From the NCBI GenBank assembly GCA_003635315.1, contig PYJD01000007.1:13400-77399 (forward strand): a stretch of 64,000 nt of DNA, given 5' to 3'. Source of the stretch: Candidatus Poribacteria bacterium. GTDB lineage: Bacteria; Poribacteria; WGA-4E; WGA-3G. This document shows, piece by piece, positions 34,936 to 50,612 of this stretch. Position 1 is the stretch's first letter. Every line of letters starts with the position of its first letter. The position numbers were made by a program, and so were the translations under genes. Below the pieces are notes generated by a model, which was not told the DNA's origin, did no database searches, and saw only the letters and a list, made by a program, of their open reading frames with translations.

Positions 34936-35652
34936 ATGATTAAAGCTATATTCTTTGATCTTGATGGAACACTTTGTGACTCAGATACAGCATGGGATTT
35001 AGCTGTTAGGAATACATTTCAACTTTTTCACAAGAAAGTGGCAAATGTATCAGAAGATCTTCTAATAAAGGTCTGGGATACTGTTCATGCGACTTTATTT
35101 CAACGACTCGACGCAGGCATATGTTCTATGGCAGAGGTGAGAGATTCACGTTACCACTGTTTATTCGATGAACTAAAATTACCTTCAAGTAAACTGGCAG
35201 ATGAACTGAATGACTCTCTCAGTCGACGTTATATTTCCAAGCTAAAACTCTTCAATGATGCTACCGTCCTTGAGCAACTGTCCACTTTTCATGTAGGTAT
35301 CATCACAAACGGTGCACACGATGAACATACTGATAGTCAACTTACTAAGGTCAAAAATCTTGGATTAAATGAGTATATTCAGTCGTTAACTATTTCAGAT
35401 GAAATCGGTTTTAGGAAACCACATTCTGAAATCTTCAAAGTTGCTTGTGAACGGGCAGGTGTATTACTGAATGAAGCAGTTATGGTTGGTGATTCAATTG
35501 AGAATGATATTGTAGGCGCAAACCGAGTGAATATGACCAGTCTCCATATCAATCGAAGTTCAAACGTCTTCATACCAAATAATCTGGATGGTCAACCAGA
35601 CTATTTAATCTCAAATTTATACGACATTTTACACTATTTGACTATAAGATAA
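34936..35652 (+). CDS. HAD-superfamily hydrolase (YjjG-like)
   Basis: Motif I FDLDGTL, ITNG, KP, and motif IV VGDSIENDIVGA. Overlaps the convergent gene by 19 nt. Confidence 0.9.
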   Translation: MIKAIFFDLDGTLCDSDTAWDLAVRNTFQLFHKKVANVSEDLLIKVWDTVHATLFQRLDAGICSMAEVRDSRYHCLFDELKLPSSKLADELNDSLSRRYISKLKLFNDATVLEQLSTFHVGIITNGAHDEHTDSQLTKVKNLGLNEYIQSLTISDEIGFRKPHSEIFKVACERAGVLLNEAVMVGDSIENDIVGANRVNMTSLHINRSSNVFIPNNLDGQPDYLISNLYDILHYLTIR

Positions 35653-36461
35653 TTGCTAATTATCTCAGTGGCGATTTCAGCTTTCGGATTATCTTGATAT
35701 TGTGTATGATAGACAATGGCTATTCTACCACGGTCCCCATCTCTAACAATGATCGGATCTGCTACTGTTGCTTCAGAATTTCCAGTATCCGTTGCAAAAA
35801 TCTTCTCTGCATACCATTCATCTTCGAATTGATCTAAGGGAAAGGGTCTGTCAGATTCGAATCTTTTTAAACTTGGACAAAGTGTCTCGGCTGCTGTTGT
35901 GACGATCATGACTGTGTCGTGTGTGTAGACATCAATCTCAATATCTTCAATGTCCATGAGGTTTTGTAAAGCCCCACGTTCATTTGCCTTACCTTCTGTA
36001 GTATTATAACCTAAATAATCAGCCTGATTCCAAATGGTATCACCATCCTTTGATTCAATCCATTTTTCTGCTATAGACCCATCGGGTTGTGCGTTTCCCG
36101 CTGGATATATCGATGCAGGTAAAACACCATTAAGGATGCAGACATTTACCGAATTGTTTGCAGTTGTTTGTACCATCCAGTCTCTCAAAGAATATTCATT
36201 CCCTGTAATTCCTACTTGTATACCTTTAGCTTCCAATAATTTTTTCGTCAGTTCTGCTTCAGTTCTGGCATTCTCAGGTGTGATCCACCATGTTTTACCG
36301 ATAAAAATTAATACATCCTCAGGTGATTCATATACTACCATCTCTGACGGTTCTAATTCTGTTACTACCGTATCTTGTATTTGTTGTGTCTTATTACAAT
36401 TGACAGAGGAAAGGATACAACTTATGAGAACAATTACAATCAGACTTCTATTTCTTAGCAT
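35634..36461 (-). CDS. Hypothetical lipoprotein-like exported protein, paralog A
   Basis: N-terminal hydrophobic stretch ending SVNC; shares IYxAGNxQxDGSIAEKWIESxDGDTIxNQADYLGY with the neighbouring gene. Confidence 0.7.
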   Translation of the reverse strand: MLRNRSLIVIVLISCILSSVNCNKTQQIQDTVVTELEPSEMVVYESPEDVLIFIGKTWWITPENARTEAELTKKLLEAKGIQVGITGNEYSLRDWMVQTTANNSVNVCILNGVLPASIYPAGNAQPDGSIAEKWIESKDGDTIWNQADYLGYNTTEGKANERGALQNLMDIEDIEIDVYTHDTVMIVTTAAETLCPSLKRFESDRPFPLDQFEDEWYAEKIFATDTGNSEATVADPIIVRDGDRGRIAIVYHTQYQDNPKAEIATEIISNYLIVK

Positions 36462-36515
36462 ATATTATCCTCCAGGAAGAAAGGGTAGTTACGAATATTC
36501 AATATCACATTGAAC

Positions 36516-37328
36516 CTATTTAGCCAAGAGATAATTGATGATTATCTCCGCTGCAACAACACCTTTCGGATTATGTTTATGATGTGTTTGGTGAACCATC
36601 GCAAGTCTACCTCGATTCCCATCTCTGAGAATGATTGGGTCAGCAGATTCTGACTCTGTTTCTCCAGTATTGCTTGCAAATATCTTTTCAGGGTACCACT
36701 CACCATCAAGTTGTTCTAAAGGAAAGGGTCTGTCAGATCTAAACGTCAATAGACTTGGTGTTAATGTTTTACCGTGTTTTGTGATATACATAGGCATTTC
36801 TTCAAAATACTCTACATTAATGTCCAGTTTTGGAAGATCCATAAGGTTTTGTAGTGGTGCTTTGTTGTTTGCCGTTCCATCTGAACTGTAATACCCTAAA
36901 TAATCCGCTTGATTCAAGATCGTATCACCATCCGTTGATTCAATCCATTTTTCGGCTATTGATCCATCGGACTGGGTATTACCTGCGGCATATATTGTAG
37001 TAGGTATGACACCATAAAGGATACAGACATTTGCCTCTCCATTTGCTGTTGTTTCTGACATCCAGCTCTTAAGATTCTCTTCACTTAGCGTAATTCCTAC
37101 TCGGATTTCATTGGTTTGCAAAAGCTTCATTGTCTGTTCAGCTTCTTCTGTTGCATGATCGTATGTGATCCAAGAAGTACTCCCTGTATAAATCAAAACA
37201 TCCGGTTGTTCTGACTTTATTTCATTTGACACAACAGATGTTTGTTCTTTATGTACTTTAGTACAACCTACAAGTGATGCTAAGCAACCAAATATAGGAA
37301 TCATCACTATCCATAGATACTTCCGCAT
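36516..37328 (-). CDS. Hypothetical lipoprotein, paralog B
   Basis: Lipobox LVGC; co-linear with 35634..36461. Confidence 0.75.
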   Translation of the reverse strand: MRKYLWIVMIPIFGCLASLVGCTKVHKEQTSVVSNEIKSEQPDVLIYTGSTSWITYDHATEEAEQTMKLLQTNEIRVGITLSEENLKSWMSETTANGEANVCILYGVIPTTIYAAGNTQSDGSIAEKWIESTDGDTILNQADYLGYYSSDGTANNKAPLQNLMDLPKLDINVEYFEEMPMYITKHGKTLTPSLLTFRSDRPFPLEQLDGEWYPEKIFASNTGETESESADPIILRDGNRGRLAMVHQTHHKHNPKGVVAAEIIINYLLAK

Positions 37329-37530: not shown

Positions 37531-37569
37531 TAAAAAAATAATAACACCGCATGTTTCTCACACGGTGTT
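37531..37569 (-). terminator. Intrinsic terminator of the minus-strand 48383-37629 cluster
   Basis: Minus strand AACACCGTGTG-AGAAA-CATGCGGTGTT (11-bp stem including G-U pairs), followed by ATTATTTTTTT. Confidence 0.65.
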
Positions 37570-37628: not shown

Positions 37629-38975
37629 CTATTTAATGGCAATCCGTTTGATTTGTCCGTTTTCCCCACCGATAGCAATGCTGTTATCCGTAGGATGTAT
37701 ATTCAACGAGTATGCCCAACCATCAATCCCAAGAATCTCATCAGTAATTTCTACTGAATCAGGATCAATCATACGAACATTGCCATCAATGCATGAAGCA
37801 ATAACTTTTGATCCATCGTTTAGCCATACGACGTTTAAAGGCACTGCATTCAGTCGTGCAAATTTCACCATTCGTCCAATAGTCGGCTGCCAGAGCCGTA
37901 CGGTACGATCATCGCTGGCAGAAGCAATCATCGGAAGACTTGTTGCATTCGGTCTGAGTGCTAAGTTATGAACAGTATGTGTATGATTGTTCATACTGTG
38001 AATTAACTCCCCTGTTGTAACATTCCATACGCGGACATTCTGATCTATTCCCGTACTAACAAGTTGTTCTTTATCTTGTATAAAACAGAGAGAGGACACC
38101 CCGCGAGAATGTCCTTTAAAACGACGAATTTCTGTACCATCCGATAAATTCCAGAGAATAATGTCACGATCCATGCTTCCAGATACAAGTGACGATGCAT
38201 CCCGCCAAGTGACTGTCATAACAGAATCACGATGTCCTCTAAGTATTTTGTGAGAAACACCTTCTGGAAAAGAGAGGATTTCTATGATACCTTCTGCTGA
38301 AGGATTTCCACCACCCACTGCTAACCATTTATTATCAGGTGAAAAAGCAAGATCATGGATATTTCGTGGGGTGACTGATATAGTCTTCTCTAATGAGAGT
38401 GTATGCCATTCATAGATCTGTAATCCGACTTGGGATCCTGCAACAAGATGCTTACCATCGTTTGTAAAAGCAAGAGAAGTGATCGGAGGCATTACTGTTG
38501 GTTGGTGAGAACTTAGGTCAGATTGATGGGTGTCTTTGGTTTGAATCCCTATCCAATCTCCATAGTTTGCTCCATCTTCAATCCATTTTCTAATAAGATT
38601 GGTTTGCTGTATTGTCAAAGGTTTACCTGTACCTGGTGGTGGCATAATGCCATTGTCGTTTTCAGATAAAGTGATGCGTTGATAGAGTAGGGAATCTTCA
38701 GGTTCACCAGTGACTATTACTTCTCCGTATTGACTCTCGGATATACCTTTTACGCTATCCAGTTGGACACCACCCTTTGGTTTAGTTACGGAATCACTCC
38801 GTTCAACCTTCGATGCACTATGACAACTGAAACAACTATTTTGGAGGATAGGCAATACCTCTTTCTCAAAATTAACTGTTGCTTTTGTATCTGAAAATGA
38901 AGACTGGACACCTATCACTATGCAAATACAACTGATAAAGAGCAGCGCGAAATATGGCTTACATTTCAGGTTCAT
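37629..38975 (-). CDS. Planctomycete-type cytochrome c domain plus WD40-repeat protein
   Basis: VNFEKEVLPILQNSCFSCH (CxxCH)...MPPPG...IRKWIEDGA, followed by GH...WD-type repeats. Confidence 0.88.
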   Translation of the reverse strand: MNLKCKPYFALLFISCICIVIGVQSSFSDTKATVNFEKEVLPILQNSCFSCHSASKVERSDSVTKPKGGVQLDSVKGISESQYGEVIVTGEPEDSLLYQRITLSENDNGIMPPPGTGKPLTIQQTNLIRKWIEDGANYGDWIGIQTKDTHQSDLSSHQPTVMPPITSLAFTNDGKHLVAGSQVGLQIYEWHTLSLEKTISVTPRNIHDLAFSPDNKWLAVGGGNPSAEGIIEILSFPEGVSHKILRGHRDSVMTVTWRDASSLVSGSMDRDIILWNLSDGTEIRRFKGHSRGVSSLCFIQDKEQLVSTGIDQNVRVWNVTTGELIHSMNNHTHTVHNLALRPNATSLPMIASASDDRTVRLWQPTIGRMVKFARLNAVPLNVVWLNDGSKVIASCIDGNVRMIDPDSVEITDEILGIDGWAYSLNIHPTDNSIAIGGENGQIKRIAIK

Positions 38976-38994
38976 CAGACAATTTCCTATATTG

Positions 38995-41232
38995 CTAATG
39001 GTTCATCACAAATTCGTTGCAGGTGAGTAGACTCCACACCATATCCTCAAGCACCCGTTGTTGGGAGGCTGCGGAGGCATAATCGTCAATATGTTGCTTC
39101 CAGAATACCCGTTCCTCTACAGTAGGATTTCTACTCAACGCAGCCAGATAGAAAGCATCAAGTATTTCCATCGGAAATTTCCCGGATTCAATTAATGTAT
39201 CCAGTCGACCACCAATAACACCGATACGGGCATTGAGAAGTTCACCATTAAATAGGTGAAGTTTGCGTTTAAGTCCATCAGTTGATGCGTTTGCCGTTTC
39301 ACATGAGGATTCACGGACACATCTACCCAATATATCGAGTGCTTCTGACTCTGTATCCGGATCAATTAAAGCAACAGCACGTGTTCCTTCAGGTTCATCA
39401 CCATAGAGATCTGGAACATTAAGGACATCTGAAATAGCATCCGCTAATACTTCAGGGGGAAGTTGTTTTTTAAGTGCGTGTGAATAGAAACGATCATCGT
39501 TCACATTTTCGGGTAGTGTATTGACGCTTCGTGCGTAAGCATCACTCATAGCGATACGTTTGAGAGTGTGGCGTAAATCGTATCCGTTCTTGACAAAGTC
39601 TTTAGCCAAATCTGCTAACAATACCGGGTGTGTAGCAGGATTCGTGGATCGGAAATCGTCAACGGGTTCAACGAGCCCGCGTCCCATCATAGCTTTCCAC
39701 AAGCGATTAACAATTGCTTTTGCAAAATAGGAGTTGTCAACACTTGTTAACCAGTCCACCAATTCAGCACGTCCATCAACATCAGATGCTAAATATCGAT
39801 CACCCGGAATACGTGGGATAGCTGTTTCACGCGTTGCAGGATGGATAACTTCCGCTTTTGGTTTTACCTTGACAACTTGATCATTTCCGTTTACTTTCGC
39901 GAGGATCGCAGTTAACCCGTGATAATCGTCCTGTGTCCATTTATCCAGTGGATGATTATGACAATTGGCACATCGTAAACGTGCCCCCATGAAGAGTTCA
40001 CTCATGAATTCTGCTTGTTCACCAGCACTTTTAGTCGTACGGTAGAAATTCGCAGGACCGACTTGATGGGAATCACCTACTGCCATAATAATTGATCGCG
40101 TAATCTGGTCATAACCTACACCATTTTGAATTTGTTGTTCGAGCCATCTATGATATACAAGTGTGCCTTGTGAGTTTCCATTCTGCCCACCAATCCTAAG
40201 TAGCTTTGCCAATTGTAATGTCCAATATTGATTGAATTCCTCTGATTGCAGGAGTGTATCTACCAACCTTTCTCGTTTTGTTAGGTCTTTGTCTGCAAGA
40301 AAGGCAGTTACATGATCAGGAACTGGGAGACGCCCTGTTAGATCAAGTGTTACCCTTCGCAGGAAGGTTGCATCGTCGGCAGCAGCTGATACAGGTATCC
40401 TTAGTGTCGCAAGTAATTTGAGAATTTCACTATCAATCACTGTTGTATTCCCAGATTGAGATGAAGTTCTATCTAAATTAGTATTATCAATAGGGGTAGT
40501 ATTCAACGGTGAAATGAATTCTATAGGAATTACTTCAGTGAGATAACGCGCAAGTATGATATGTCGACCCGGACGCACCATTTTAGCGGTAGAAGTGGTT
40601 GTATCAATTTTAATAGTCGATGTATCCTCTGGTGTAAAGACTGTCCATCGTGTTACATCTTTGGTAGTTCCATCAGAAAAATAAGCTATTGAACGAAGTT
40701 GTATGGATGCTTCAAGGTCCTGTATTATCTGTTTTTTTGGTGTTATTTCAACACGGTCCAATTCACGTTGTGTGTTAAAACGCGCACCCTGTTTAATCCA
40801 GTTGAGGAGTAATTCCACTGCTTCTTCATTCTCATTCAGGACTTGTCCACCACCATGTTTAGTTTGTGCTGTTGGTTTTAATATAACAAGGCTTTCGTCA
40901 GGATATATTAGGTTAATCCTACGTCCTGAAAATTGTCGAACAATTGCTTGATAGTCAGCTTGTGGATTACCCCCAAAGAGTGATAGATTTAGTTCTCCTC
41001 TACCTGCAGCGGAACCGTGGCATGCCCCCGCATTACAACCGAACTTGGTGAAGATAGGAATCAAATCATTTTCAAAATCAACAACATACGTAGAATCTGA
41101 AGTGTTTGCTTGCGATGGCACGATATGAGAAGAATATTCGTCTGCAAAGGATATATTGGGTAATACCAGACAATACACAAATAGTATTGTGGTTAATATG
41201 GACATGATTTCTACTGATTGTCTTTTCTTCAT
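38995..41232 (-). CDS. DUF1549/DUF1553 (PSD1/PSD2) domain protein with Ig-like domain
   Basis: GCNAGACHG, FLRRVTLDLTGRLP, CANCHNHP, AIVNRLWKAMMGRGLVEPVDD, and C-terminal EDMVWSLL...EF..NH. Confidence 0.9.
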   Translation of the reverse strand: MKKRQSVEIMSILTTILFVYCLVLPNISFADEYSSHIVPSQANTSDSTYVVDFENDLIPIFTKFGCNAGACHGSAAGRGELNLSLFGGNPQADYQAIVRQFSGRRINLIYPDESLVILKPTAQTKHGGGQVLNENEEAVELLLNWIKQGARFNTQRELDRVEITPKKQIIQDLEASIQLRSIAYFSDGTTKDVTRWTVFTPEDTSTIKIDTTTSTAKMVRPGRHIILARYLTEVIPIEFISPLNTTPIDNTNLDRTSSQSGNTTVIDSEILKLLATLRIPVSAAADDATFLRRVTLDLTGRLPVPDHVTAFLADKDLTKRERLVDTLLQSEEFNQYWTLQLAKLLRIGGQNGNSQGTLVYHRWLEQQIQNGVGYDQITRSIIMAVGDSHQVGPANFYRTTKSAGEQAEFMSELFMGARLRCANCHNHPLDKWTQDDYHGLTAILAKVNGNDQVVKVKPKAEVIHPATRETAIPRIPGDRYLASDVDGRAELVDWLTSVDNSYFAKAIVNRLWKAMMGRGLVEPVDDFRSTNPATHPVLLADLAKDFVKNGYDLRHTLKRIAMSDAYARSVNTLPENVNDDRFYSHALKKQLPPEVLADAISDVLNVPDLYGDEPEGTRAVALIDPDTESEALDILGRCVRESSCETANASTDGLKRKLHLFNGELLNARIGVIGGRLDTLIESGKFPMEILDAFYLAALSRNPTVEERVFWKQHIDDYASAASQQRVLEDMVWSLLTCNEFVMNH

Positions 41233-41250
41233 TCTTTTAGTCCTTTGGGG

Positions 41251-42624
41251 TTAAGACTTATCCTCAATACAATATAGATGTGTCTCAGAACGTAGGATGA
41301 GAGTATCACCCGCAACCGCGCCTGATGCAATGAATCCGTCGGGGAATTCGTTTTTAGATAGCAAATTAAACTCGCGATCAGCAGAAATAACTGAAACTCG
41401 TCCATCAGTGTTGAAAAAGTAGATATTTCCACCCGCATATACTGGTGATGCCCAATACTTCCCACCGATACGATTTCTCCACACAAGATTACCATTTTCT
41501 GCTTCTACACAAATAACAATGCCACCCTCATTTACCATAAAAATCAAGTCATCTATAACCAGTGGAGATGGAATTTCAGGAGCACCTTTACGAACTTTCC
41601 AAACAATATGTGATTCGGTTACATCTCCCGTGCCGGAAGGATCTACTGCTAATAACACTTTCTCTATACCTGTGGTAAAATAGACACGGTTATGGGCAAA
41701 AATCGGTCTACATGCAACGTTCCATCCCCATCCTTCATGACGAACCCGCCACAATTCATCTCCTGATGCAGGATCATAAGATATAGTTACCTCTGCTGCG
41801 GGACTGATCAGTTGCTTCTTTCCTTGATAGGTAATAATTGTAGGTGTGGCGTAGGATTTCCTATTGTCATTCGGTTTCTCTTTTTGTGTCTTTTCTGTAT
41901 CCTTAATCCCTTTAGCTTTAAGAACATCCTCAAAATTCGAATCCACCTTACGATGTTTCAACCACAATGTATCCCCGTTATTTTTATCTAATGCTGCAAT
42001 AAACTGAGCATCGACACCATCGAATGTAAGGAACAACCGATTCTCATCAAGAATAGGGGATGAAGCCGGTCGTACTCGGTGGTCGCAATTCAGATTTCTC
42101 CGTTCCCAAAGAATATCACCCGTTTTTGTGTCTAAACATGCAGTTCCATAAGTTCCGTAATGCACGTAGATCCGTCCTTCCTCCACAATTGGGGTCGGAG
42201 AAGCATGACTGTTTAAGCCAGGATGTTCAACTTGTGGTTCTACTACATCAAACACTTTTATATCGTGTATGATGTTGCCACTCTCTAAGTCAACACAGAT
42301 TGCAAAGAGTTCCTTTCCATCACGCCGTGCGGTTGTCAACCAAATCTGATTTCCCCAAACTACAGGAGATGAATATCCTTCATCGTGGATCGGTGTCTTC
42401 CAGCGTATGTTTTTCGTTTCATTGAATTCAATTGGAAGATTGGATGCTGGTGATTGACCATCTCCGTTCGGACCCCGGAATTGATTCCAATACTTCATTT
42501 CATTTTCGTTTTGACCATACAGAGAATAAGATAAGACAGTCATACCGAGAAATAAAAGAATTAGGATAGTTGTAGATACACGTTTCATATATACCATTAT
42601 ATTTTTCAAATAGAGAGAAATCAT
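41251..42624 (-). CDS. PQQ-binding-like beta-propeller protein (BamB-like), secreted
   Basis: WNQFRGPNGDG, GYSSPVV, ASPTP and YWASPV repeats. The start may be at 42588. Confidence 0.85.
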   Translation of the reverse strand: MISLYLKNIMVYMKRVSTTILILLFLGMTVLSYSLYGQNENEMKYWNQFRGPNGDGQSPASNLPIEFNETKNIRWKTPIHDEGYSSPVVWGNQIWLTTARRDGKELFAICVDLESGNIIHDIKVFDVVEPQVEHPGLNSHASPTPIVEEGRIYVHYGTYGTACLDTKTGDILWERRNLNCDHRVRPASSPILDENRLFLTFDGVDAQFIAALDKNNGDTLWLKHRKVDSNFEDVLKAKGIKDTEKTQKEKPNDNRKSYATPTIITYQGKKQLISPAAEVTISYDPASGDELWRVRHEGWGWNVACRPIFAHNRVYFTTGIEKVLLAVDPSGTGDVTESHIVWKVRKGAPEIPSPLVIDDLIFMVNEGGIVICVEAENGNLVWRNRIGGKYWASPVYAGGNIYFFNTDGRVSVISADREFNLLSKNEFPDGFIASGAVAGDTLILRSETHLYCIEDKS

Positions 42625-42820
42625 TTTTTTCTGTTATACCATTTCTAAATGATGATTACTCATTCAGGTTTTAGACTATGCAGATATTTCTCTTGAGAAT
42701 ATTCTTCAATTGCTGATATTTCTGATGATTAGAAGATCGAAAAAAACAGACATTACACCCTAAACATCACAGATCAAAATTACACAGATTACTTTCACAG
42801 ATATTCGGTATAAAATTGAC

Positions 42821-44191
42821 CTATACGAATAATTCTGTAACAACTTTTGCACCGTCTGGTGCAACGCGAACTGGACGTCCGTCACTTGTATGAAGTTCTA
42901 AACTGGGGTCAATACCGAGGAGTGTGTAGATTGTAGCCGATAAATCTGAGGGAGTTACAGGACGTTCTTTGGGAAATTCACCAAGTGTATCACTGCTTCC
43001 GATAATTTGTCCACCCTGCACACCACCCCCAGCCAACATCACACTAAATACATTTGGCCAATGATCGCGTCCACCTTGTGAGTTTATTTTCGGTGTACGA
43101 CCAAACTCACCCATGACTATGACAAGTGTTTCATCCAACATTCTCCGGTCACTAAGATCTTGAATCAAGGCACTTAATGCGCGATCGAGAGAAGGTAAAT
43201 GTGCATTTCGATCTGTAGGATAACGTTCTTTCAACTGGAAGATATTTTGATGCGTGTCCCAACCGGTATGATTAACTGTCACAAATGGAACTCCCCGTTC
43301 TACCAACCTACGTGCAAGTAAACAACTATGTCCAATTCCATTCACGCCTCCTGATCCATATCGATTCCGTACATCTCGATGTTCATCAGATAGATTGAAG
43401 GCACCCTTTGCTTCTGGAGAAGTAATTAGATTGTATGCACGTTCCAATTCTGGATCCGCTACCGATTCTGTATCAGCATCTTTAGCACTGCTAAATTCAT
43501 TAAGTGCGTTGACAAATTGTCTACGTCGTGAAAGCCGATCAATATCAAGACCTTGGTAGAAGTCCAGATCTCGAACCTTGAATTGTCCTCTTTTTTCTTT
43601 TTCGGAATTACCGACCACAGAAAAGGGAGTTGTGGAGATAGGTAAATACCCATTACCTGACACTTCACCTGTGAAGTTTGGTACAGCAATGTTTGGGGGT
43701 AATGCGGATAGTGATTCCCCGGAACTGTCCTTAATATTTTGAGATCTGACATAAGTGACAGTTGCACCATAGGTTGGATATTCAAGGGCAGGAGTAGGTT
43801 TGTATCCTGTCATGAGATACTGTGTGCCGAGACTATGTTCACCAAGGGGTGAAGTCATTGAGCGGATAATAGCAATTTTATCCATGGTTTGCGCGGTTTG
43901 ATCCAAACATTCACTAATACGTACACCGGTGATATTCGTAGAAATGGTATTCAATGGACCACGTACTTCCTGGGGTGTATCTGGTTTTGGGTCGAATGTT
44001 TCCAGATGACTGGGACCGCCATCAAGCCATATTAATATGCATGATTTTGCTTTTGCTGTGAGTGGATTGGTATTGGCATTAGCGCGTTGGATAAGAAAAA
44101 AGTTTCCTAACCCTAAACCCAACGCTGTCAATCCACCGACACGTAAGAAATTACGACGGCTAATACCATCACATCTTTTTGTAATATCCAT
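42821..44191 (-). CDS. DUF1501 domain-containing protein (Tat substrate)
   Basis: Twin-arginine SRRNFLRVG; LIWLDGGPSHLETFDPKP, LARRLVERGVPFV, GWDTH and GEFGRTP. Confidence 0.92.
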   Translation of the reverse strand: MDITKRCDGISRRNFLRVGGLTALGLGLGNFFLIQRANANTNPLTAKAKSCILIWLDGGPSHLETFDPKPDTPQEVRGPLNTISTNITGVRISECLDQTAQTMDKIAIIRSMTSPLGEHSLGTQYLMTGYKPTPALEYPTYGATVTYVRSQNIKDSSGESLSALPPNIAVPNFTGEVSGNGYLPISTTPFSVVGNSEKEKRGQFKVRDLDFYQGLDIDRLSRRRQFVNALNEFSSAKDADTESVADPELERAYNLITSPEAKGAFNLSDEHRDVRNRYGSGGVNGIGHSCLLARRLVERGVPFVTVNHTGWDTHQNIFQLKERYPTDRNAHLPSLDRALSALIQDLSDRRMLDETLVIVMGEFGRTPKINSQGGRDHWPNVFSVMLAGGGVQGGQIIGSSDTLGEFPKERPVTPSDLSATIYTLLGIDPSLELHTSDGRPVRVAPDGAKVVTELFV

Positions 44192-44211
44192 TATGTTTCT
44201 CCTCTGATTAC

Positions 44212-47200
44212 CTAATCGGAATCCTTGCTACGTTGTTCTTGGGATTTGTTAGAATCCATACTTTTATCTTTAACCCGACTAAGATCGAATACAATTTTAT
44301 CAATACCTGCTTCTTTGGCAATATACATTACCTTGACGATTTGCTCATGTGATACTCCTCGTTCTGCTTCGATAATAAGCATAGATTCTGGTACTTCAGG
44401 AAAGCTCCGAAGGAACGTAAGCAATACATCAAACTGTATCACTGTCTCATCTAAGTCCACGACACTTTCGTTTAATACAAACGATCCCTTTAAGAACATT
44501 TTGCCATTTTCTTCTCTCTTAGAAGGATTCATAATTTTGATTATAGGAATCTTGATATTTAACCACTCTTCCAAGGTAGCAGGCTTTTCTCCAATTAACT
44601 CGCTAATGGCACCAAGCACATACGGGTCTGGAGATAACATAGGTTGTGCTAAAGGGAAGTTGTGTAACACTATTCCATTTTTGGCAACAATTACCGTTTG
44701 TGCCATGTTACGATTCAGACCGTAATTCCCCGGTCCTTCACGTCCATCGGGAGAAATGCCGAGTAGTATATTTTCTGGTATATGTGGCACTATCTTACTT
44801 GCTTGTTGGAATAACGCTTCTGGTGAATCACCTAAAAATACTACCTGTACTTGGAATTCGTGTTTAGATTTTTGGGATATCTCTTCCAATATGCGGGTAA
44901 ACCCAACTAATCCACGTAAACCGAGAGGTGTTTCATCCTGTATGACAAGTATGTGTGACTTTCCATTAGCGTTTGCAATAAAATCAATTGTTTTTCCTTC
45001 ATCATCACCGTTAATAACCGTAGCCATTAAAGATGGTAGTTTCTCCGACGGTTGGGGTCCAGAAAATAAAACTTTTTCTCGATTCCTATTAAACTCATCG
45101 GGATCTTTTACCTCAACCTTCCTTCTACGATTTCGATTTTGGTTTTTACCACTTTCCAACATACGCTGGACAGTCATTCTTTCTTCTTCGTTTAGTATTC
45201 CATCCTTGTCTTTGTCAAAAAGTTTCACGAGTAATTCTGGAGACAAAGCAGACTCTTTTTCGCGATCACCATCCCGTTCCATTCGTCTACCTTCGAGGTT
45301 GTTCTCGCGCCGACTTCGTTCTTCTGCTGAGGGTTCACCTTCTCTTTCACGTATTCTCTCTTGATTCATTTGCTGTCTTTGGCGTTGCATTCGTGTTTGT
45401 TCAGCGGGTTGCTCGTTTAGCCAATTTTCTGCAGAATCTGGATCTATACCAAGCGTTTGTACAATGGCACCAAGAACATGTGGGTCAGCATATACGGTGG
45501 GTTGTGTCAGTGCGAAATTATACAGGACTTTTCCTTCTTTGGCAATTATGACTGTTTGTGATACATTTCTGTTCAAACCGTAGCTACCCGGTCCCTCTCG
45601 TCCATCATGCGAAATGCCAAAAAGGATCTCGTTAGTTCCATTTTCGACTATCCTCTTTGCAACGCCACTCACTCTTTGGGTTAACTGTTCAGGATCATCA
45701 CCGAGAAATACAACATTCATATGTAATTTCTGTTTTGATTTGCTTATAATTGTACCGATCATGCGTGATGTGTCATACAATCCCCGCAATCCAGCACCAT
45801 TACCATCTTGCATGAACAGAATGAGTGGGTGTTTACCTGCTTTTGATATGAAATCGAATGATCTATCTTTTGATTTACCAGAAATACTTGTGGCTTTTAG
45901 TGGTGGAAGTTTCTCACCCGGTTGCGGACCTGAGTATATCTGCTTTTCTTCAGGTTTCTTAAAATCTGCAGGGTCAGATAATTTAACCTGCCGTTCATTA
46001 CGGTATCTTCTACTGTCCATCTTTGGAGATGCATCTTTTGTTTCATTGAGGAGTTTTGCGGTCCTTTCTGGATTGATTCCCAAATCCTCAAGTTTTATTT
46101 TTGCTTCCTCCTTTGACATCTTCCCGTTCATGAGTGCTTTTTCAATTTCTGACACGTAATATTCAGTAGATTTTTGATCAGCACCCATTTTCATTTTTTG
46201 GTTCGCAGATTTCTGATTCAACCATTTTTCCATCGTGGACGGTTCCACTCCAATTGCCTGTGAAACAGCACCCAAAACATAAGGGTCTGTGTATAGCATA
46301 GGTTGTGTGAATGCGAAATTGTGAGTGACTTTTCCATCTTTAGATATCAAGATCGTCTGAGCAACATTCCGATTCAACCCATAACTTCCTGGTCCTTCAC
46401 GACCACCAGGAGACATACATACCATTACACCCATTTCTGACCATACTTTAAAATCATCTACTGACCACTCAGGCAGTGCATCCACATTATCAATGAGGAA
46501 TATAACACCTATTTGTAGTGATTGATTGGTATCTTCATTATTTGCTTGTTGTATCTGGTATTCAGCGATCCTTAATAACAGATTGATTACCATACCAAAC
46601 CCTTTTACCCCAACTTCACTGGCATCCTGAACGAATAGCATGAGAGGTTGTCTGTCTGTTTTAGTTATATCGAATGTCTTTCCTTCAATTTCACCATACA
46701 TACCAGTAACATTAAAGGAGGGTAGTTTTTCTCCTACTTGTGGTCCTGAGAATATCCTCTTCTCTTCGGAACTAATAGAAAATGTTGGATCTTTTACTTC
46801 TATCAGCGAGTAATCTTTGTACATTTTTTTCTTTTTGTTTTCAGTTTCCGTCTTCAGCATCTTCTGATTCTGAGTTTTATCAATTGGTTTTTCAGCCTTT
46901 TCAGATGTTTGAGCAAAAAGTGATACGGGTACAGTCCTTATAGGTATCAACTGTGCCATTGAGAGTAGAGGTAAACAGATAATCAGGAATGAAGCTGCTA
47001 AGATGAGAATGCGAGGTTTCATAGTTAAGTCTATTCTACGATTATGTTTCAGGATGGAATCAATTCGTGATTCTAACCACGATGGTTTATTGAGTGACAA
47101 GGCAAGCGGGATTGTTCCATTCTCGTGTCGCGCTAAATCTAACAAACATTGTGCATACTTTTTCCTTGATCCTGTCAATTGGATTACCCAGTCATCACAA

Positions 47201-47976
47201 ATTTGTTCACGTAAATGCACAAGCTTTTGGTTCAACAGATGATAAATTGGATGAAAAAAGAATACAACCCCGACAACTTGTGAAAACAGATTTATCAACC
47301 AATCAAGTCTTTGTATATGTGCTAATTCGTGTGCTGCTACCATTTCAAACTGTTCAAATGTCAAATCTCTTGGAATCAGGATATGTGGAGCTAACCAACC
47401 AAATGAGATTGGGGATACCACATCATCCGAATAACATACAGTGACAGGTCGTCTAATGTTAAATTGTTGTGCTAATCTCTTACAAATTAGCTGATAACCC
47501 TCCTCGGCAGTTGAGGTACGACTTCTAATCCTACTGATTCTATAAAAGCCAAATACGATCCTTATTAACATACTGAGTGTTCCAATTCCCCATATTCCAA
47601 GTATTAGGTGCGTAATTGACAATTTAGAATAGAACGGGTTATTCGAAGAAATGTGTTGGTTAGATAGTGTTTGGTTTTCAATTGATACAATCGTTGAAGG
47701 ATTAGACTCTTGGATATTAGACTCTTGGATATTTAAACTTGACACCTCCAAGGATTGTGTGGCAATTAATTTAGATTCAGCTTGTACGATAGAGAGTCCA
47801 GGAATAAATTGATTTAATGCGAATAGAATTGGTAAGCTGATTAAAAACAATAACCATAGTAAATGAACTGTGTTGTTTGATTGATGGAATCGTCTGGTTA
47901 TAAGCCATGTTAAACCACCTAATAATCCCCATTGCCATGAACAATTGAGCAATGAAAGTAGGATTTGATGAGTCAT
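44212..47976 (-). CDS. BlaR1-like M56 peptidase with three internal thioredoxin-like repeats, an EF-hand-like motif and a C-terminal ExbD/TolR-like domain
   Basis: TM helices and HELAH zinc motif (M56); SGPQxGEKLP...GREGPGxYGLNRN repeated three times; FDKDKDGILNEEE; LIIEAERGVSHEQIVKVMYIAKEAG. Translationally coupled to the upstream regulator (TGATG). Confidence 0.85.
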   Translation of the reverse strand: MTHQILLSLLNCSWQWGLLGGLTWLITRRFHQSNNTVHLLWLLFLISLPILFALNQFIPGLSIVQAESKLIATQSLEVSSLNIQESNIQESNPSTIVSIENQTLSNQHISSNNPFYSKLSITHLILGIWGIGTLSMLIRIVFGFYRISRIRSRTSTAEEGYQLICKRLAQQFNIRRPVTVCYSDDVVSPISFGWLAPHILIPRDLTFEQFEMVAAHELAHIQRLDWLINLFSQVVGVVFFFHPIYHLLNQKLVHLREQICDDWVIQLTGSRKKYAQCLLDLARHENGTIPLALSLNKPSWLESRIDSILKHNRRIDLTMKPRILILAASFLIICLPLLSMAQLIPIRTVPVSLFAQTSEKAEKPIDKTQNQKMLKTETENKKKKMYKDYSLIEVKDPTFSISSEEKRIFSGPQVGEKLPSFNVTGMYGEIEGKTFDITKTDRQPLMLFVQDASEVGVKGFGMVINLLLRIAEYQIQQANNEDTNQSLQIGVIFLIDNVDALPEWSVDDFKVWSEMGVMVCMSPGGREGPGSYGLNRNVAQTILISKDGKVTHNFAFTQPMLYTDPYVLGAVSQAIGVEPSTMEKWLNQKSANQKMKMGADQKSTEYYVSEIEKALMNGKMSKEEAKIKLEDLGINPERTAKLLNETKDASPKMDSRRYRNERQVKLSDPADFKKPEEKQIYSGPQPGEKLPPLKATSISGKSKDRSFDFISKAGKHPLILFMQDGNGAGLRGLYDTSRMIGTIISKSKQKLHMNVVFLGDDPEQLTQRVSGVAKRIVENGTNEILFGISHDGREGPGSYGLNRNVSQTVIIAKEGKVLYNFALTQPTVYADPHVLGAIVQTLGIDPDSAENWLNEQPAEQTRMQRQRQQMNQERIREREGEPSAEERSRRENNLEGRRMERDGDREKESALSPELLVKLFDKDKDGILNEEERMTVQRMLESGKNQNRNRRRKVEVKDPDEFNRNREKVLFSGPQPSEKLPSLMATVINGDDEGKTIDFIANANGKSHILVIQDETPLGLRGLVGFTRILEEISQKSKHEFQVQVVFLGDSPEALFQQASKIVPHIPENILLGISPDGREGPGNYGLNRNMAQTVIVAKNGIVLHNFPLAQPMLSPDPYVLGAISELIGEKPATLEEWLNIKIPIIKIMNPSKREENGKMFLKGSFVLNESVVDLDETVIQFDVLLTFLRSFPEVPESMLIIEAERGVSHEQIVKVMYIAKEAGIDKIVFDLSRVKDKSMDSNKSQEQRSKDSD

Positions 47977-48383
47977 CAGTCTCTCCTTGTAGATGTTACT
48001 TCTTCCGGTTGATAGTCATTGATAAGTTGTTGTAAACGATTCAATTCATCAGAACTTGTTTGTCTAACTTCAAGAAGAGTATTTACCAGTTTTTCGGCGG
48101 AATTGTCAAAAAGACGTTCAAGTAAATCGATCAACATTGTATGTGTAATTTCAGTTTCTTTGACCAATGGTTGGTAAACGAAGGTTCTACCTTCAACTTG
48201 ATGTGATAGAACCCCTTTTTTCTCAAGACTCTTCATGGTCGTAGCGATAGTGGTATAAGCAATTTTACGGTCAATAGCATCAAGCACATCATTGACAGTG
48301 GCACGCTCAAGTTTCCAGATTGCTTTCATAACTTCAAGCTCTAAATGGTGTAATCTGTTGGGTTTCATCCCTTTAATCCTCAT
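47976..48383 (-). CDS. BlaI/MecI/CopY family transcriptional repressor
   Basis: LELEVMKAIW...ATVNDV...AYTTIATTMKSLEKKG...GRTFVY. Confidence 0.93.
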   Translation of the reverse strand: MRIKGMKPNRLHHLELEVMKAIWKLERATVNDVLDAIDRKIAYTTIATTMKSLEKKGVLSHQVEGRTFVYQPLVKETEITHTMLIDLLERLFDNSAEKLVNTLLEVRQTSSDELNRLQQLINDYQPEEVTSTRRD

Positions 48384-48487: not shown

Positions 48488-48546
48488 AATACTATTTCTA
48501 AATACGGAGTAATAGTATTGTACATAATTATAATTCTATTTGTCAA
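48488..48546 (-). promoter_or_regulatory. Promoter and candidate operator of the BlaI/BlaR1 cluster
   Basis: Minus strand TTGACA (48546-48541), 18 nt, TACAAT (48522-48517). The perfect inverted repeat AATACTATT-N14-AATAGTATT (48488-48519) overlaps the -10/+1 region. Confidence 0.55.
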
Positions 48547-48594: not shown

Positions 48595-50568
48595 TTAGAA
48601 TTTCCCAAACACGCGTACAAATATCTCCATATAATTCTGGTCGTTAACATCACCGATTGCACGTTGGTCAATGTACCGTGCTCCTATATGGAGAAACATC
48701 TGCTTACGATAAGCAACGAAACTCTTTTCCATTTCTGCTAACAGTGCTTGACGAACAAAGTCATTATCATCTTTCAGTAAATCATTAAAAAGGAGTAATT
48801 GTCCACCCCCTGTAAGTTTAATCGTCTTTGTAAACTGATATACTATTTTAAGAATAAGAGCAGGTGTCATATCTCGGACATGTGCTTGCTCAATATGCCG
48901 TAATCTTAGTTCACGTGTGACATCTCTACCGTCAATCTCTCCTCTTAATTTTAGGTAATCCAGTCTATCCTCTGCCATACGGAAACCATTCCGAATGGTA
49001 TACTTAAACATAGGACTGATTTCCAGTGATTTTGATGGACGTAGTCGGTATAACGTTTTAAAGATTCCGACTTCGTAGTGCTCATTATCATTATCAAAAT
49101 CGATATCATATTGTATTTTTGCGCGGGCAGTGGTAACCATTCGTCTGATTCCCAGATACTCCCATGTAAGTTTCGCAGTGTTGATGAGATCATTCTGCAT
49201 CAGCAATGGATCAATTCGTCGTTTTTCGACTTCCGCACCACCATCAACGTAAAAGAACTGTAAATCATTGTCTTCCAACATATCTTGAATGTGTGGTTGT
49301 CTTTTAAACAGATCTTCATCCTGTCTTCTTAAGAAACCAGCATAATACCAAGTTTCATCCGGTATTTCATCTTTCACCAGTTTGAGTTCATTCTCAAGTA
49401 TAAAAGTAGAAGCTCGTGCAAGCTGCCGTTTGTATATCATAGTACCATACGCTTTACTTGATCTTGGAATATTACGATATCTATGGTTTTCCTCTATTTG
49501 CATACCAAGGTCTAAATCGATGACGCTCTGTTTATGGTATATCTTTCGATTCATGAAGAATCGTATGCCTTGTAGTCCAACATCAAACTCGTAATTTGGG
49601 TCTTTATCATTTTCCTCTTCATCTCGTATCCCGTTGTTGTTTTGATCACTTTCGTCAAGAAAATCCTCATCGACATCAAACAGTAGGATATCGTCCTCAT
49701 AATCAAAAGTTCCGTTATTGTTTTTATCGAGGTCACCAGGAATAATTAGGGAAGGTGGATCAGGAAATGTGTTATCTGAATACCTGTCCTGATCATCATT
49801 ATCCCCTACTGACCGAGAAGCATCAAAACGCGGACCGACCCGATATGCCTCAGCTTGTAGAAGTGTATCGCCGACAGTTCGGAAAGCTTTGAAAACAGTT
49901 GTCGTCGCGTCAAACCGTGAATTCAGATCTTTATATAGAGCGTTTTTAGGTGTGACGGCTATCTCTGCTTTTAATCCATAGTTGGCGAAGTTCGTTTCCA
50001 TGTCTATTGCCCAAACAGGTGTTTCCCGAAAATACCAAGAAAGTCCAAGTTGTGATTTGCCAAATTTAGTAACCTCCCGCAACCCCATTCCTGAACCCTC
50101 TATTCGTCTTCCTTGCCCACTTAACCGGTTCAGTGTTCCCGGTACCATCAGGATAGTCCAATCTGTTCGGTTGGAACGTACCTCCCATCGCACTCCGCTC
50201 ATATCTATTTGATCAAAGGTGAATTTCGTGAATGTTGTGGGAACTTCACCGAGACTCAATATATTATTTACTGTACCTGCCGTTTCTTCAATAACCAATA
50301 CACTATGAAACCCACGTCTGAAAAGACGGTCAAAATCAAAATTATCTTGTCTGACACGTTCATCCTCTGTGTCGGCAAGAAAGTTACGTCTATTGGTAAA
50401 ATCATATTCTACACGTCCCGAAAGGAATAGTTTACCGAATAGACTGTATACATCCTCAGCGTTAACATGGAAGAAGGGAGAACAGAGGAAGAAAAAAGTG
50501 AAAGGTAGTAGAATGGATTTAATTACAGTACGATGCCTAATAGAACTTTTTGAGAAGGTATTATGCAT
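48595..50568 (-). CDS. Predicted outer-membrane beta-barrel protein with acidic Dx(D/N)xNG Ca-binding-like insert
   Basis: Signal peptide; amphipathic strand pattern with a terminal Phe (FVRVFGKF); insert GDLDKNNNGTFDYEDD...DQNNNGIRDEEE. Confidence 0.6.
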   Translation of the reverse strand: MHNTFSKSSIRHRTVIKSILLPFTFFFLCSPFFHVNAEDVYSLFGKLFLSGRVEYDFTNRRNFLADTEDERVRQDNFDFDRLFRRGFHSVLVIEETAGTVNNILSLGEVPTTFTKFTFDQIDMSGVRWEVRSNRTDWTILMVPGTLNRLSGQGRRIEGSGMGLREVTKFGKSQLGLSWYFRETPVWAIDMETNFANYGLKAEIAVTPKNALYKDLNSRFDATTTVFKAFRTVGDTLLQAEAYRVGPRFDASRSVGDNDDQDRYSDNTFPDPPSLIIPGDLDKNNNGTFDYEDDILLFDVDEDFLDESDQNNNGIRDEEENDKDPNYEFDVGLQGIRFFMNRKIYHKQSVIDLDLGMQIEENHRYRNIPRSSKAYGTMIYKRQLARASTFILENELKLVKDEIPDETWYYAGFLRRQDEDLFKRQPHIQDMLEDNDLQFFYVDGGAEVEKRRIDPLLMQNDLINTAKLTWEYLGIRRMVTTARAKIQYDIDFDNDNEHYEVGIFKTLYRLRPSKSLEISPMFKYTIRNGFRMAEDRLDYLKLRGEIDGRDVTRELRLRHIEQAHVRDMTPALILKIVYQFTKTIKLTGGGQLLLFNDLLKDDNDFVRQALLAEMEKSFVAYRKQMFLHIGARYIDQRAIGDVNDQNYMEIFVRVFGKF

Positions 50569-50612
50569 ATCTATGTTAATATATTAATGGTAGACTACAT
50601 GCTAACCGATAT

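Follow-up and report, generated by a model that had tools for sequence, protein, structure and literature searches.

Within the window, a 64,000-nucleotide stretch of contig PYJD01000007.1 from a sponge-symbiotic member of the Poribacteria, six co-oriented open reading frames span positions 48383-37629 of the minus strand (Table 1). They code, in this order, for a BlaI/MecI-type repressor, an M56/BlaR1-type fusion protein, a DUF1501 protein, a BamB/PQQ_2-type β-propeller, a PSCyt2/PSD1 protein and a PSCyt1-WD40 protein, with successive gaps of -1 (a 1-nt overlap), 20, 196, 18 and 19 nt. These coordinates agree with the gene order and spacing proposed in the first-pass annotation, and both the promoter with an inverted repeat that it placed at the head of the cluster and the terminator that it placed at the tail were located. 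Promoter-like and terminator-like sites across the region do not exceed in total those of shuffled sequence; the head promoter and the tail terminator are retained because of their position and, in the case of the promoter-operator, also because it is conserved in relatives.

Table 1. Positions, within the window, of the genes, domains and sites discussed in the text
Feature	Position	Strand	Size or residues	Basis
Sigma-70-type promoter TTGACA-18-TACAAT	48517..48546	-		11/12 positions match
Putative BlaI operator AATACTATT-N14-AATAGTATT	48488..48519	-		12-nt inverted repeat, 92% complementary
blaI, winged-helix BlaI/MecI-type repressor	47976..48383	-	135 aa	PF03965
M56/BlaR1-type fusion gene	44212..47976	-	1254 aa	
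M56 (BlaR1-type) membrane zinc-protease domain	46948..47976	-	residues 1-343	PF05569
Thioredoxin-fold repeat 1, cysteine-less	46207..46818	-	residues 387-590	Internal repeat alignment
Thioredoxin-fold repeat 2	45406..45987	-	residues 664-857	Internal repeat alignment
EF-hand-like calcium loop DKDKDGILNEEE	45181..45216	-	residues 921-932	Sequence and position
Thioredoxin-fold repeat 3	44551..45117	-	residues 954-1142	AlphaFold2 and Foldseek
ExbD/TolR-like periplasmic domain, C-terminus	44257..44550	-	residues 1143-1240	PF02472
Tat-exported DUF1501 protein	42821..44191	-	456 aa	PF07394, E 2.8e-101
Intergenic gap before propeller	42625..42820	-	196 nt (about 232 nt with Met13 as the propeller start)	
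Exported BamB/PQQ_2-type beta-propeller	41251..42624	-	457 aa	PF13360, E 7e-25
Exported Cx4CH / Big_2 / PSCyt2 (DUF1549) / PSD1 (DUF1553) protein	38995..41232	-	745 aa	Pfam and fold
Exported PSCyt1-WD40 propeller protein	37629..38975	-	448 aa	PF07635, E 1.5e-10; PF00400, E 4e-33
Intrinsic terminator	37543..37569	-		11-bp stem, then T-run

The repressor and its putative operator

The product of blaI matches the Pfam family Penicillinase_R over nearly the whole profile (E 1.6e-30, positions 4-114 of 115) and its alignment with MecI (1SD6; E 3e-10, MecI residues 8-121) takes in the whole protein. By both comparisons it has an N-terminal winged-helix DNA-binding domain and a C-terminal dimerisation helix. 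Within the aligned helix, KLVNTLLE stands against SLVLNFVE of MecI, so that the Asn is present with no Phe after it, and the Asn-Phe site of BlaI and MecI does not appear to be conserved (VNTLLE versus LNFVE). The genome has a single BlaI/M56 pair, that is, one blaI and one true M56 gene, and the stop of the former overlaps the start of the latter.

The inverted repeat lies directly after the -10 box, the 3' end of which it overlaps. Its palindromic 9-14-9 geometry, placed over what is predicted to be the own promoter of blaI, is found again in relatives: in 26 of 31 related loci a TTGACA-17-TATAAT element followed by the same half-sites at the same spacing is kept upstream of blaI. Moreover, the 4.3-Mb genome contains a single site with the strict operator pattern and this spacing.

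Inside the cluster a terminator scan found none. The gap in front of the propeller gene, a junction that measures 35-219 nt in relatives, could house a second promoter; its RNA does not fold better than shuffled sequence (z -1.43). The first codon of the propeller is probably Met13 (nt 42588) and not the annotated one, because orthologues align only from residues 10-13 and the likeness to an RNA contig ends at 42589. The metatranscriptome contigs, which come from a strain 90-95% identical, give thin coverage and may include DNA, bridge no gene junction.

The M56 fusion protein

The N-terminal part of the fusion protein is a multi-pass membrane domain with an intact HExxH zinc site (Peptidase_M56, E 5.9e-34; HELAH at residues 216-220) and a last transmembrane helix, as judged from hydropathy, at residues 325-343. 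It aligns with BlaR1 of Staphylococcus aureus (8EXS) up to this helix, with HELAH opposite HEYAH. The outer part, of 910 residues, is made up of three thioredoxin-fold repeats, an EF-hand loop and an ExbD-like end, and no transpeptidase or β-lactamase match was found in the protein with Pfam. We therefore rejected the identity of a β-lactam sensor, the outer region being composed of thioredoxin-fold repeats with no penicillin-binding domain.

The repeats gave no Pfam match and no PDB match by sequence. The AlphaFold2 model of repeat 3 (pLDDT 89.6, pTM 0.88), however, has 291 Foldseek matches in the PDB at E<=1e-3, with DsbE, ResA and peroxiredoxins at the top and TlpA also among them; the Foldseek probability is 1.00 against 3GL3, 1SU9, 3DRN and 4NMU. 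The repeats thus share the fold (TM-score of about 0.7, target-normalised) and the compartment of TlpA, ResA, CcmG (DsbE) and the peroxiredoxins, but differ from them in lacking a CxxC or a peroxidatic Cys and in having invariant motifs of their own (FSGPQxGE, EGPGxYGLNRN and NFxxxQP). At the place of the active site, the start of helix 1, there is no conserved Cys; the position reads QDxxxxG in the Poribacteria and VHExxRP in the Planctomycetota. In the genome under study the domain occurs only within the M56 protein, with no free copy. Pfam EF-hand matches are carried by three homologues (P0026, P0060 and P0076).

Over its last 100 residues the protein is similar to the periplasmic domain of ExbD/TolR. 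The match falls below the Pfam cut-off (24.1 bits against 25.4; E 4e-5) and covers only profile positions 67-123; this end is 43% identical to the ExbD encoded by the same genome (contig C48), and a homologue (P0139) scores 52.6 bits against the same profile. In contrast to ExbD and TolR, the domain closes an unrelated protein and has neither the transmembrane helix of its own nor the conserved Asp found in ExbD. Relatives of the M56 protein carry extra domains in exchange, such as LRR, ankyrin, LTD and EF-hand.

The exported proteins

All four downstream products are predicted to be exported, one of them by the Tat route, as first proposed: a Tat motif (SRRNFL) is present in the DUF1501 protein, and the other three products have N-terminal hydrophobic signal segments. 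The DUF1501 protein is probably a hydrolase of the alkaline-phosphatase superfamily, judging from its invariant Ser, Asp-x-His and Asp-His motifs (invariant residues R12, R13, S61, D67, K69, H119, D312, H314, D376 and H377) and from a weak match to a phosphodiesterase family (PF01663). It is 51-60% identical to the DUF1501 proteins linked to the thioredoxin-fold domain in Planctomycetota and 32-46% identical to the paralogues in its own genome, and the domain-linked DUF1501 genes form one orthologous group across phyla. The nearest relatives of the propeller in the PDB are BamB and tetrathionate hydrolase, and its only repeat match is of the PQQ_2/BamB type.

The CxxCH or related Cys motifs that had been ascribed to two of the exported products reside in the WD40 protein (CFSCH at residue 48) and in the PSD1 protein (CNAGACH at residue 66 and CANCH at residue 421). 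The latter matches PSCyt2 (E 5.7e-40) and PSD1 (E 2.6e-34) in Pfam; C421, C424, H425 and H427 are invariant in PSCyt2 and the N-terminal Cx4CH is nearly so, the domain that bears it not being recognised by the PSCyt1 model (E 0.3). In the AlphaFold2 model of the protein (pLDDT 76.8) the Big_2 domain matches LigB (2MOG; E 7e-4). The helical body of the protein has no fold match in the PDB and resembles no known cytochrome.

Distribution and gene linkage

Searched with a profile of the thioredoxin-fold domain, 1.84 billion representative proteins yielded 761 clusters (at 50% identity), among them free-standing exported proteins in Stieleria, Rhodopirellula and other Planctomycetota. Four distant members, without exception, have PSD1 and DUF1501 as neighbours, in a rearranged gene order. 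Outside the Poribacteria, the thioredoxin-fold gene, PSD1, DUF1501 and WD40 are colinear in 19 of 22 loci, and the thioredoxin-fold domain is therefore the fourth conserved part of the module. The four parts are thus a cysteine-less thioredoxin-fold protein, a Big_2-PSCyt2/PSD1 protein, a Tat-DUF1501 enzyme and a PSCyt1-WD40 propeller. The Poribacteria, for their part, have tripled the thioredoxin-fold part, tethered it to the inner membrane and given it an ExbD-like end; in about three quarters of their loci an M56 zinc protease precedes it as part of one fusion protein.

A survey of 48 Poribacteria loci found BlaI/M56 in 34 and none in 11. The anchored repeat/ExbD protein is kept without M56 or BlaI in 11 of 45 loci, and the nearest relative has deleted residues 1-274 of M56 while keeping BlaI; the switch is thus not essential to the module. 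The adjacency is not peculiar to this genome, since 40 of 42 Poribacteria loci have DUF1501 behind the M56/repeat gene, starting within 2.5 kb of the last repeat. Part of this linkage signal may be synteny inherited among relatives, although the variable inserts argue against it.

The β-propeller, in contrast, is an optional accessory. Only 22 of 48 Poribacteria loci, and none of 28 loci from other groups, have it within the cluster, and in many relatives it has moved or been lost. This does not bear out the view that it occupies the slot of a PPC-domain gene; it is the thioredoxin-fold domain, located within the BlaR1-like protein itself, that is conserved as a fourth partner. The inserts that vary among the Poribacteria loci are the propeller, FGE and a fucosidase.

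A four-gene cluster with a PPC component, to which that view refers, is described in the literature: among the DUF1501 modules of PVC bacteria, the most complex cluster, of four genes, has a fourth gene with weak PPC domains, and no regulator was described for it (Kamneva et al., 2012; PMC3542564). As in that cluster, Tat-DUF1501, PSCyt1/Big_2/PSCyt2/PSD1 and PSCyt1/WD40 proteins are found together and all are exported. Here and in the Pirellulales, however, the fourth gene codes for a thioredoxin-fold protein, and Pfam found no PPC domain in any gene of the cluster.

A proposed switch for an exported module

From its sequence, the reading of the locus as an inducible operon is well supported. 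We propose, with a probability of about 0.6, that the six genes form one BlaI-repressed operon for a conserved four-part exported module, in which the repeats fused to M56 serve as the periplasmic sensor. BlaI would sit on the -10 box and the start site, bound to the 9-14-9 inverted repeat, and so shut off all six genes; the periplasmic repeats would report the state of the module, be it the ligand of the module or occupancy by its partner proteins; and the signal would activate the cytoplasmic HExxH protease, which would cleave BlaI and de-repress the operon. Since the genome lacks a free-standing thioredoxin-fold protein, the fusion probably serves as working subunit and sensor alike. As for the chemistry of the module, our best guess is that DUF1501 hydrolyses an ester substrate, helped by partners that may carry haem. 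A more specific version, which we regard as doubtful, is that the repeats of this subunit-cum-sensor, cysteine-less and ResA/CcmG-like, hold the CxxCH domains of the PSCyt proteins, and that the protease reads the filling of these sites and sets operon expression by cutting BlaI. If true, an assembly checkpoint would have been made from a structural part, and the natural switch-less and protease-deleted variants would serve as controls.

The proposed switch resembles the BlaI/BlaR1 and MecI/MecR1 systems of S. aureus and Bacillus licheniformis (BlaR1 structures 8EXP-8EXT) in that the repressor gene overlaps the gene of a membrane HExxH protease, the putative operator is palindromic and lies over the promoter, and the extracytoplasmic sensor follows the last transmembrane helix. 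It departs from them in its sensor, which is penicillin-binding (class D β-lactamase-like) in BlaR1 and MecR1 and here consists of three thioredoxin-fold domains, an EF-hand loop and an ExbD-like domain; in its targets, which are an exported module and not β-lactamase or PBP2a; and in the Asn-Phe cleavage site, which appears not to be conserved.

The loci that keep the repeat/ExbD protein without M56 or BlaI, the deletion in the nearest relative and the swapped domains of related M56 proteins would also fit a fusion that is mainly a membrane anchor, with repeats that are only subunits of the module and with any signalling a response to general envelope or protein-folding stress and not to the substrate or partner proteins of the module. 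We find this rather unlikely, however, because a plain anchor would have no need of the protease and repressor that are kept together in 34 loci; HExxH is intact, the M56 start overlaps the blaI stop, and the promoter-operator is conserved and present once in the genome. That the BlaI/M56 pair regulates only itself, the genes behind it being adjacent through inherited synteny and having promoters of their own, above all the propeller, is very unlikely. The gap of 196-232 nt before the propeller, the mobility of that gene and the RNA contigs that bridge no junction are consistent with it; but M56 and DUF1501 are only 20 nt apart with no terminator between them, DUF1501 keeps its place behind the repeat gene in 40 of 42 loci although the inserts vary, and in another phylum the sensor domain is tied to DUF1501, PSD1 and WD40 in shuffled order. 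The single BlaI/M56 pair, the unique operator, its conservation in 26 of 31 loci and the adjacency in 40 of 42 bear out the suggestion, made in the first-pass annotation, of a regulatory handle on an exported system.

The companion suggestion, of a redox complex, fared less well. The four exported proteins might form a periplasmic haem electron-transfer complex, with the switch sensing a redox signal, and electron transport has in fact been proposed for such modules (Kamneva et al., 2012; PMC3542564). PSCyt2 has an invariant CxxCH, the N-terminal Cx4CH of the PSD1 protein is nearly invariant, PSCyt1 has CFSCH, three genes for cytochrome c assembly are present in the genome, and ResA and DsbE, to which the repeat domain is closest in fold, act in cytochrome c maturation. 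Against this, the repeats are without redox or active-site cysteines, DUF1501 has the invariant residues of a hydrolase and a weak phosphodiesterase-like match, the helical body of PSD1 is unlike any known cytochrome, and in the literature we found no demonstration that PSCyt domains bind haem, for which the only indications are the invariant CxxCH and the assembly genes. A haem complex is, in our judgement, quite unlikely.

Significance

Few orphan families of the Planctomycetota, the Verrucomicrobiota and their relatives are as abundant as DUF1501 and the PSCyt/PSD families. With the proposed BlaI-controlled operon, their module gains a fourth component, a previously unannotated family of cysteine-less thioredoxin-fold proteins, and a regulator, with a short and conserved putative BlaI operator and with the M56 protease as an inducible handle; a reporter-based screen could accordingly look for the signal that induces it. 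The fusion is also a non-antibiotic example of BlaR1-type proteases acquiring new sensor domains. Natural variants are supplied by the Poribacteria, in which the switch is present, absent or deprived of its protease, and the plain four-gene form is carried by cultured Pirellulales usable for genetics, namely Stieleria bergensis, Roseiconus nitratireducens and Roseimaritima sediminicola.

A thioredoxin fold on the M56 protease

The second gene of the six-gene cluster, which follows blaI and precedes the genes for DUF1501, the propeller, the PSCyt2/PSD1 protein (hereafter PSD1) and the PSCyt1-WD40 protein, codes for an M56 family member that is not a beta-lactam sensor. The M56 domain occupies residues 1-343, with the last TM helix at 325-343; in an alignment with S. 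aureus BlaR1 that extends up to that last helix, its HELAH motif (216-220) falls opposite HEYAH. By homology in topology, the other 910 residues would face outward. This part holds three repeats, each roughly 190 residues long, whose starts lie near positions 387, 664 and 954; it also holds an EF-hand loop of canonical form (DKDKDGILNEEE, residue 921) and, at the C-terminus, an ExbD-like end. The repeats have no match in Pfam (E ≤ 1) or, by sequence, in the PDB (E ≤ 10), and it was the comparison of folds alone, not these searches, that identified the domain. With an AlphaFold2 model of repeat 3 (pLDDT 89.6, pTM 0.88), Foldseek returned 291 PDB matches at E ≤ 1e-3, headed by DsbE, ResA, other thiol-disulfide oxidoreductases and peroxiredoxins; this sets the repeat firmly in the thioredoxin fold. 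No cysteine is found at the CxxC position of the repeats, and the invariant motifs FSGPQxGE, EGPGxYGLNRN and NFxxxQP are peculiar to the family. The outer part of these M56/repeat proteins is a domain-shuffling hotspot; LRR, ankyrin and lamin-tail domains and EF-hand pairs are inserted in the related proteins P0029, P0040, P0050 and P0026.

Linkage of the repeat domain to a four-gene module

Searching 1.84 billion representative proteins with a profile placed the repeat domain in 761 clusters, of which 155 matched at E ≤ 1e-30. Many members stand alone as proteins of 230-400 residues that begin with a signal peptide, and those with a named source belong to Planctomycetota (Stieleria bergensis, Rhodopirellula sp. 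and others). PSCyt2/PSD1 and DUF1501 genes adjoin all four distant members that were looked up, in three different gene orders; a WD40 gene is also alongside in three, and the contig of the fourth ends inside DUF1501. A scan of species-representative genomes gave 526 matches, the best 76 of which were analyzed as loci (48 from Poribacteria and 28 from elsewhere). Within these best 76, the thioredoxin-fold gene, PSD1, DUF1501 and WD40 stand in line, in this order, in 19 of the 22 non-Poribacteria loci whose flanking DNA was long enough for them to be counted. The first-pass annotation had proposed a survey of DUF1501 neighbourhoods, and among the same best 76 of 526 a DUF1501 gene follows the last repeat within 2.5 kb in 40 of 42 Poribacteria loci; the linkage therefore crosses phyla. 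The window's assembly (4.3 Mb, 50 contigs), whose homologues bear the name Candidatus Poribacteria, has six DUF1501 genes but just one blaI and a single true M56 gene. The DUF1501 protein of the cluster is 51-60% identical to Planctomycetota copies linked to the repeat domain, but only 32-46% identical to its five paralogues in the same genome, and so belongs to a distinct orthologous module. The thioredoxin-fold gene also occurs in seven loci from MAGs labelled Gammaproteobacteria, Acidiferrobacterales or Alcaligenaceae (L095, L099, L103, L105, L106, L115 and L121), at 46-53% identity to the window's repeat and in most cases with the rest of the four-gene module; these could be mis-binned Planctomycetota contigs or real transfers.

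The switch as an add-on

Among the best 76 of the 526 matches, none of the 28 non-Poribacteria loci has BlaI, M56 or the ExbD-like end, and in Poribacteria both BlaI and M56 are present in 34 of the 48 loci and missing from 11, the other three being cut off. In the switch-less loci the start of the encoded protein lies shortly ahead of the counterpart of the last M56 TM helix, which there acts as a signal anchor. The nearest relative (87% identical; L041:9612-15162, ENA ERZ21830300 ctg717593l) has kept blaI intact and lost M56 residues 1-274, the gene after blaI starting at the equivalent of residue 275, and is a natural variant with the repressor and without the protease. In G040 (loci L034 and L102), a relative that shares the order but not the family, blaI and M56 with only one thioredoxin-fold repeat (639 aa) come before a PSD1 pseudogene, of which three short pieces of the C-terminus are left, out of frame; the cluster seems to have decayed there. 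From the switch-less loci, the deletion in L041 and the decayed copy in G040 it follows that the switch is an addition to the module and was lost on several occasions. In L041, the propeller is a 37-residue remnant matching residues 421-457. The gene for the 657-aa barrel candidate upstream of the cluster has a counterpart that immediately precedes the repeat/ExbD gene in the switch-less loci; in L044, the two are separated by about 4 kb of unrelated genes. A link between the barrel and the ExbD-like end is possible.

Where blaI is present, its upstream region is conserved: 26 of 31 loci have TTGACA-17-TATAAT, and in those 26 the end of the -10 box runs into AATACTATT-N14-AATAGTATT, a putative operator. 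At this spacing the strict pattern occurs once in the 4.3-Mb genome; a loose pattern allowing two substitutions gave 375 genome matches, which is noise, so that only the strict form is informative. The alignment of BlaI with MecI covers both domains, and in it the Asn-Phe cleavage site does not appear to be kept in the window's BlaI.

The propeller and the likely chemistry of the module

The BamB-like propeller, which the first-pass annotation had placed in the slot of a PPC-domain gene, is not the conserved fourth part: among the best 76 of the 526 matches, only 22 of the 48 Poribacteria loci have it within the cluster. None of the non-Poribacteria loci does, the propeller being there a loose neighbour at best, and this distribution rules it out as a core part. 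In L025 (G019:C1:1096894-1098510) its orthologue is broken into three pieces, each 70-73% identical, and so is probably a pseudogene.

The same annotation had also predicted an inducible periplasmic redox complex; the residues are better explained by a hydrolase aided by partners that perhaps bear haem than by a complex with a purely redox role. The invariant residues of DUF1501 (S61, D67, K69, H119, D312, H314, D376 and H377) and a weak phosphodiesterase match in Pfam would agree with an alkaline-phosphatase-type metal site, a reading taken from the known pattern of the superfamily. For PSD1, all 21 sequences compared, distant paralogues among them, share C421, C424, H425 and H427. The PSD1 model has a pLDDT of 76.8, with low confidence in the N-terminal Cx4CH region; against the PDB, its Big_2 Ig domain alone was matched (LigB, E 7e-4), the helical body having no match. 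PDB searches with the DUF1501 and PSD1 sequences gave nothing useful. Attachment of haem is possible, since cytochrome c assembly genes are present in the genome.

An FGE-sulfatase gene lies between DUF1501 and the propeller in seven Poribacteria loci, and an alpha-L-fucosidase gene precedes the WD40 gene in one (inserts at L043:15436-16497, L043:20553-22394 and L044:14289-15380). A function on sulfated glycans, which these genes brought to mind, was dropped because the window's genome has very many FGE paralogues (at least 20 tblastn matches, seven on contig C18) and because DUF1501 has no CxPxR motif.

A proposed working and its relation to known systems

Beyond the gene structure, fold, cross-phylum linkage and conserved operator, which are observed, the working of the cluster may be pictured as follows. 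BlaI would bind the putative operator and repress all six genes. The thioredoxin-fold repeats of the M56 protein, the sole copy of that module part in the window's genome, would join in the module in the periplasm and report its state, be it a ligand or the occupancy by PSCyt partners; the HExxH protease would then cleave BlaI. The regulatory logic is that of BlaI/BlaR1, although no penicillin-binding domain serves as the sensor. The regulated genes correspond to the four-gene DUF1501 cluster that Kamneva et al. (2012; PMC3542564) described; only the fourth gene differs. That paper and one on a Verrucomicrobia MAG both call the function unknown; our literature search found no paper naming both DUF1501 and DUF1553, and the terms PSD1 and PSCyt were masked by unrelated "Psd1" papers. 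The locus does not itself tell what the function is, but it opens a long-standing orphan system to experiment.

Layout and expression of the cluster

The head-to-tail layout described in the first-pass annotation stands, with a 1-nt overlap and then gaps of 20, 196, 18 and 19 nt, and Pfam bears out each of its gene names. Export is likewise supported, by a Tat motif (SRRNFL) in DUF1501 and N-terminal signal segments in the other three downstream proteins, and the Cys motifs CFSCH, CNAGACH and CANCH were found in the downstream proteins.

Features of the cluster, in window coordinates
Feature	Position	Strand	Product
Promoter TTGACA-18-TACAAT	48546-48517	minus	
12-nt inverted repeat, 92% complementary, immediately after promoter	48488-48519		
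blaI	48383-47976	minus	135 aa
M56 gene	47976-44212	minus	1254 aa
DUF1501	44191-42821	minus	456 aa
Propeller	42624-41251	minus	457 aa
PSCyt2/PSD1	41232-38995	minus	745 aa
PSCyt1-WD40	38975-37629	minus	448 aa
Terminator, 11-bp stem	37569-37543	minus	

For the propeller, Met13 (nt 42588) is the more likely start, because its orthologues align only from residues 10-13 and because an RNA contig loses its likeness to the window at 42589. The junctions of 20, 18 and 19 nt are too short for terminators, and none is predicted; the gap of 196-232 nt before the propeller has no terminator either, its fold being no better than that of shuffled sequence (z -1.43), and in several relatives this junction is only 35-90 nt. 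In one sponge metatranscriptome, thin contigs from a 90-95% identical strain touch all six genes and bridge no gene junction, which weakly indicates expression of the cluster.

Upstream, on the minus strand (48595-54836), lie genes for a 1407-aa Reg_prop propeller and a 657-aa barrel candidate, which precede the cluster in relatives too. Directly after the terminator, also on the minus strand (35634-37328), are two paralogous genes (270 and 275 aa) that match no Pfam family; the pair is retained downstream of the WD40 gene in most of the Poribacteria loci examined.
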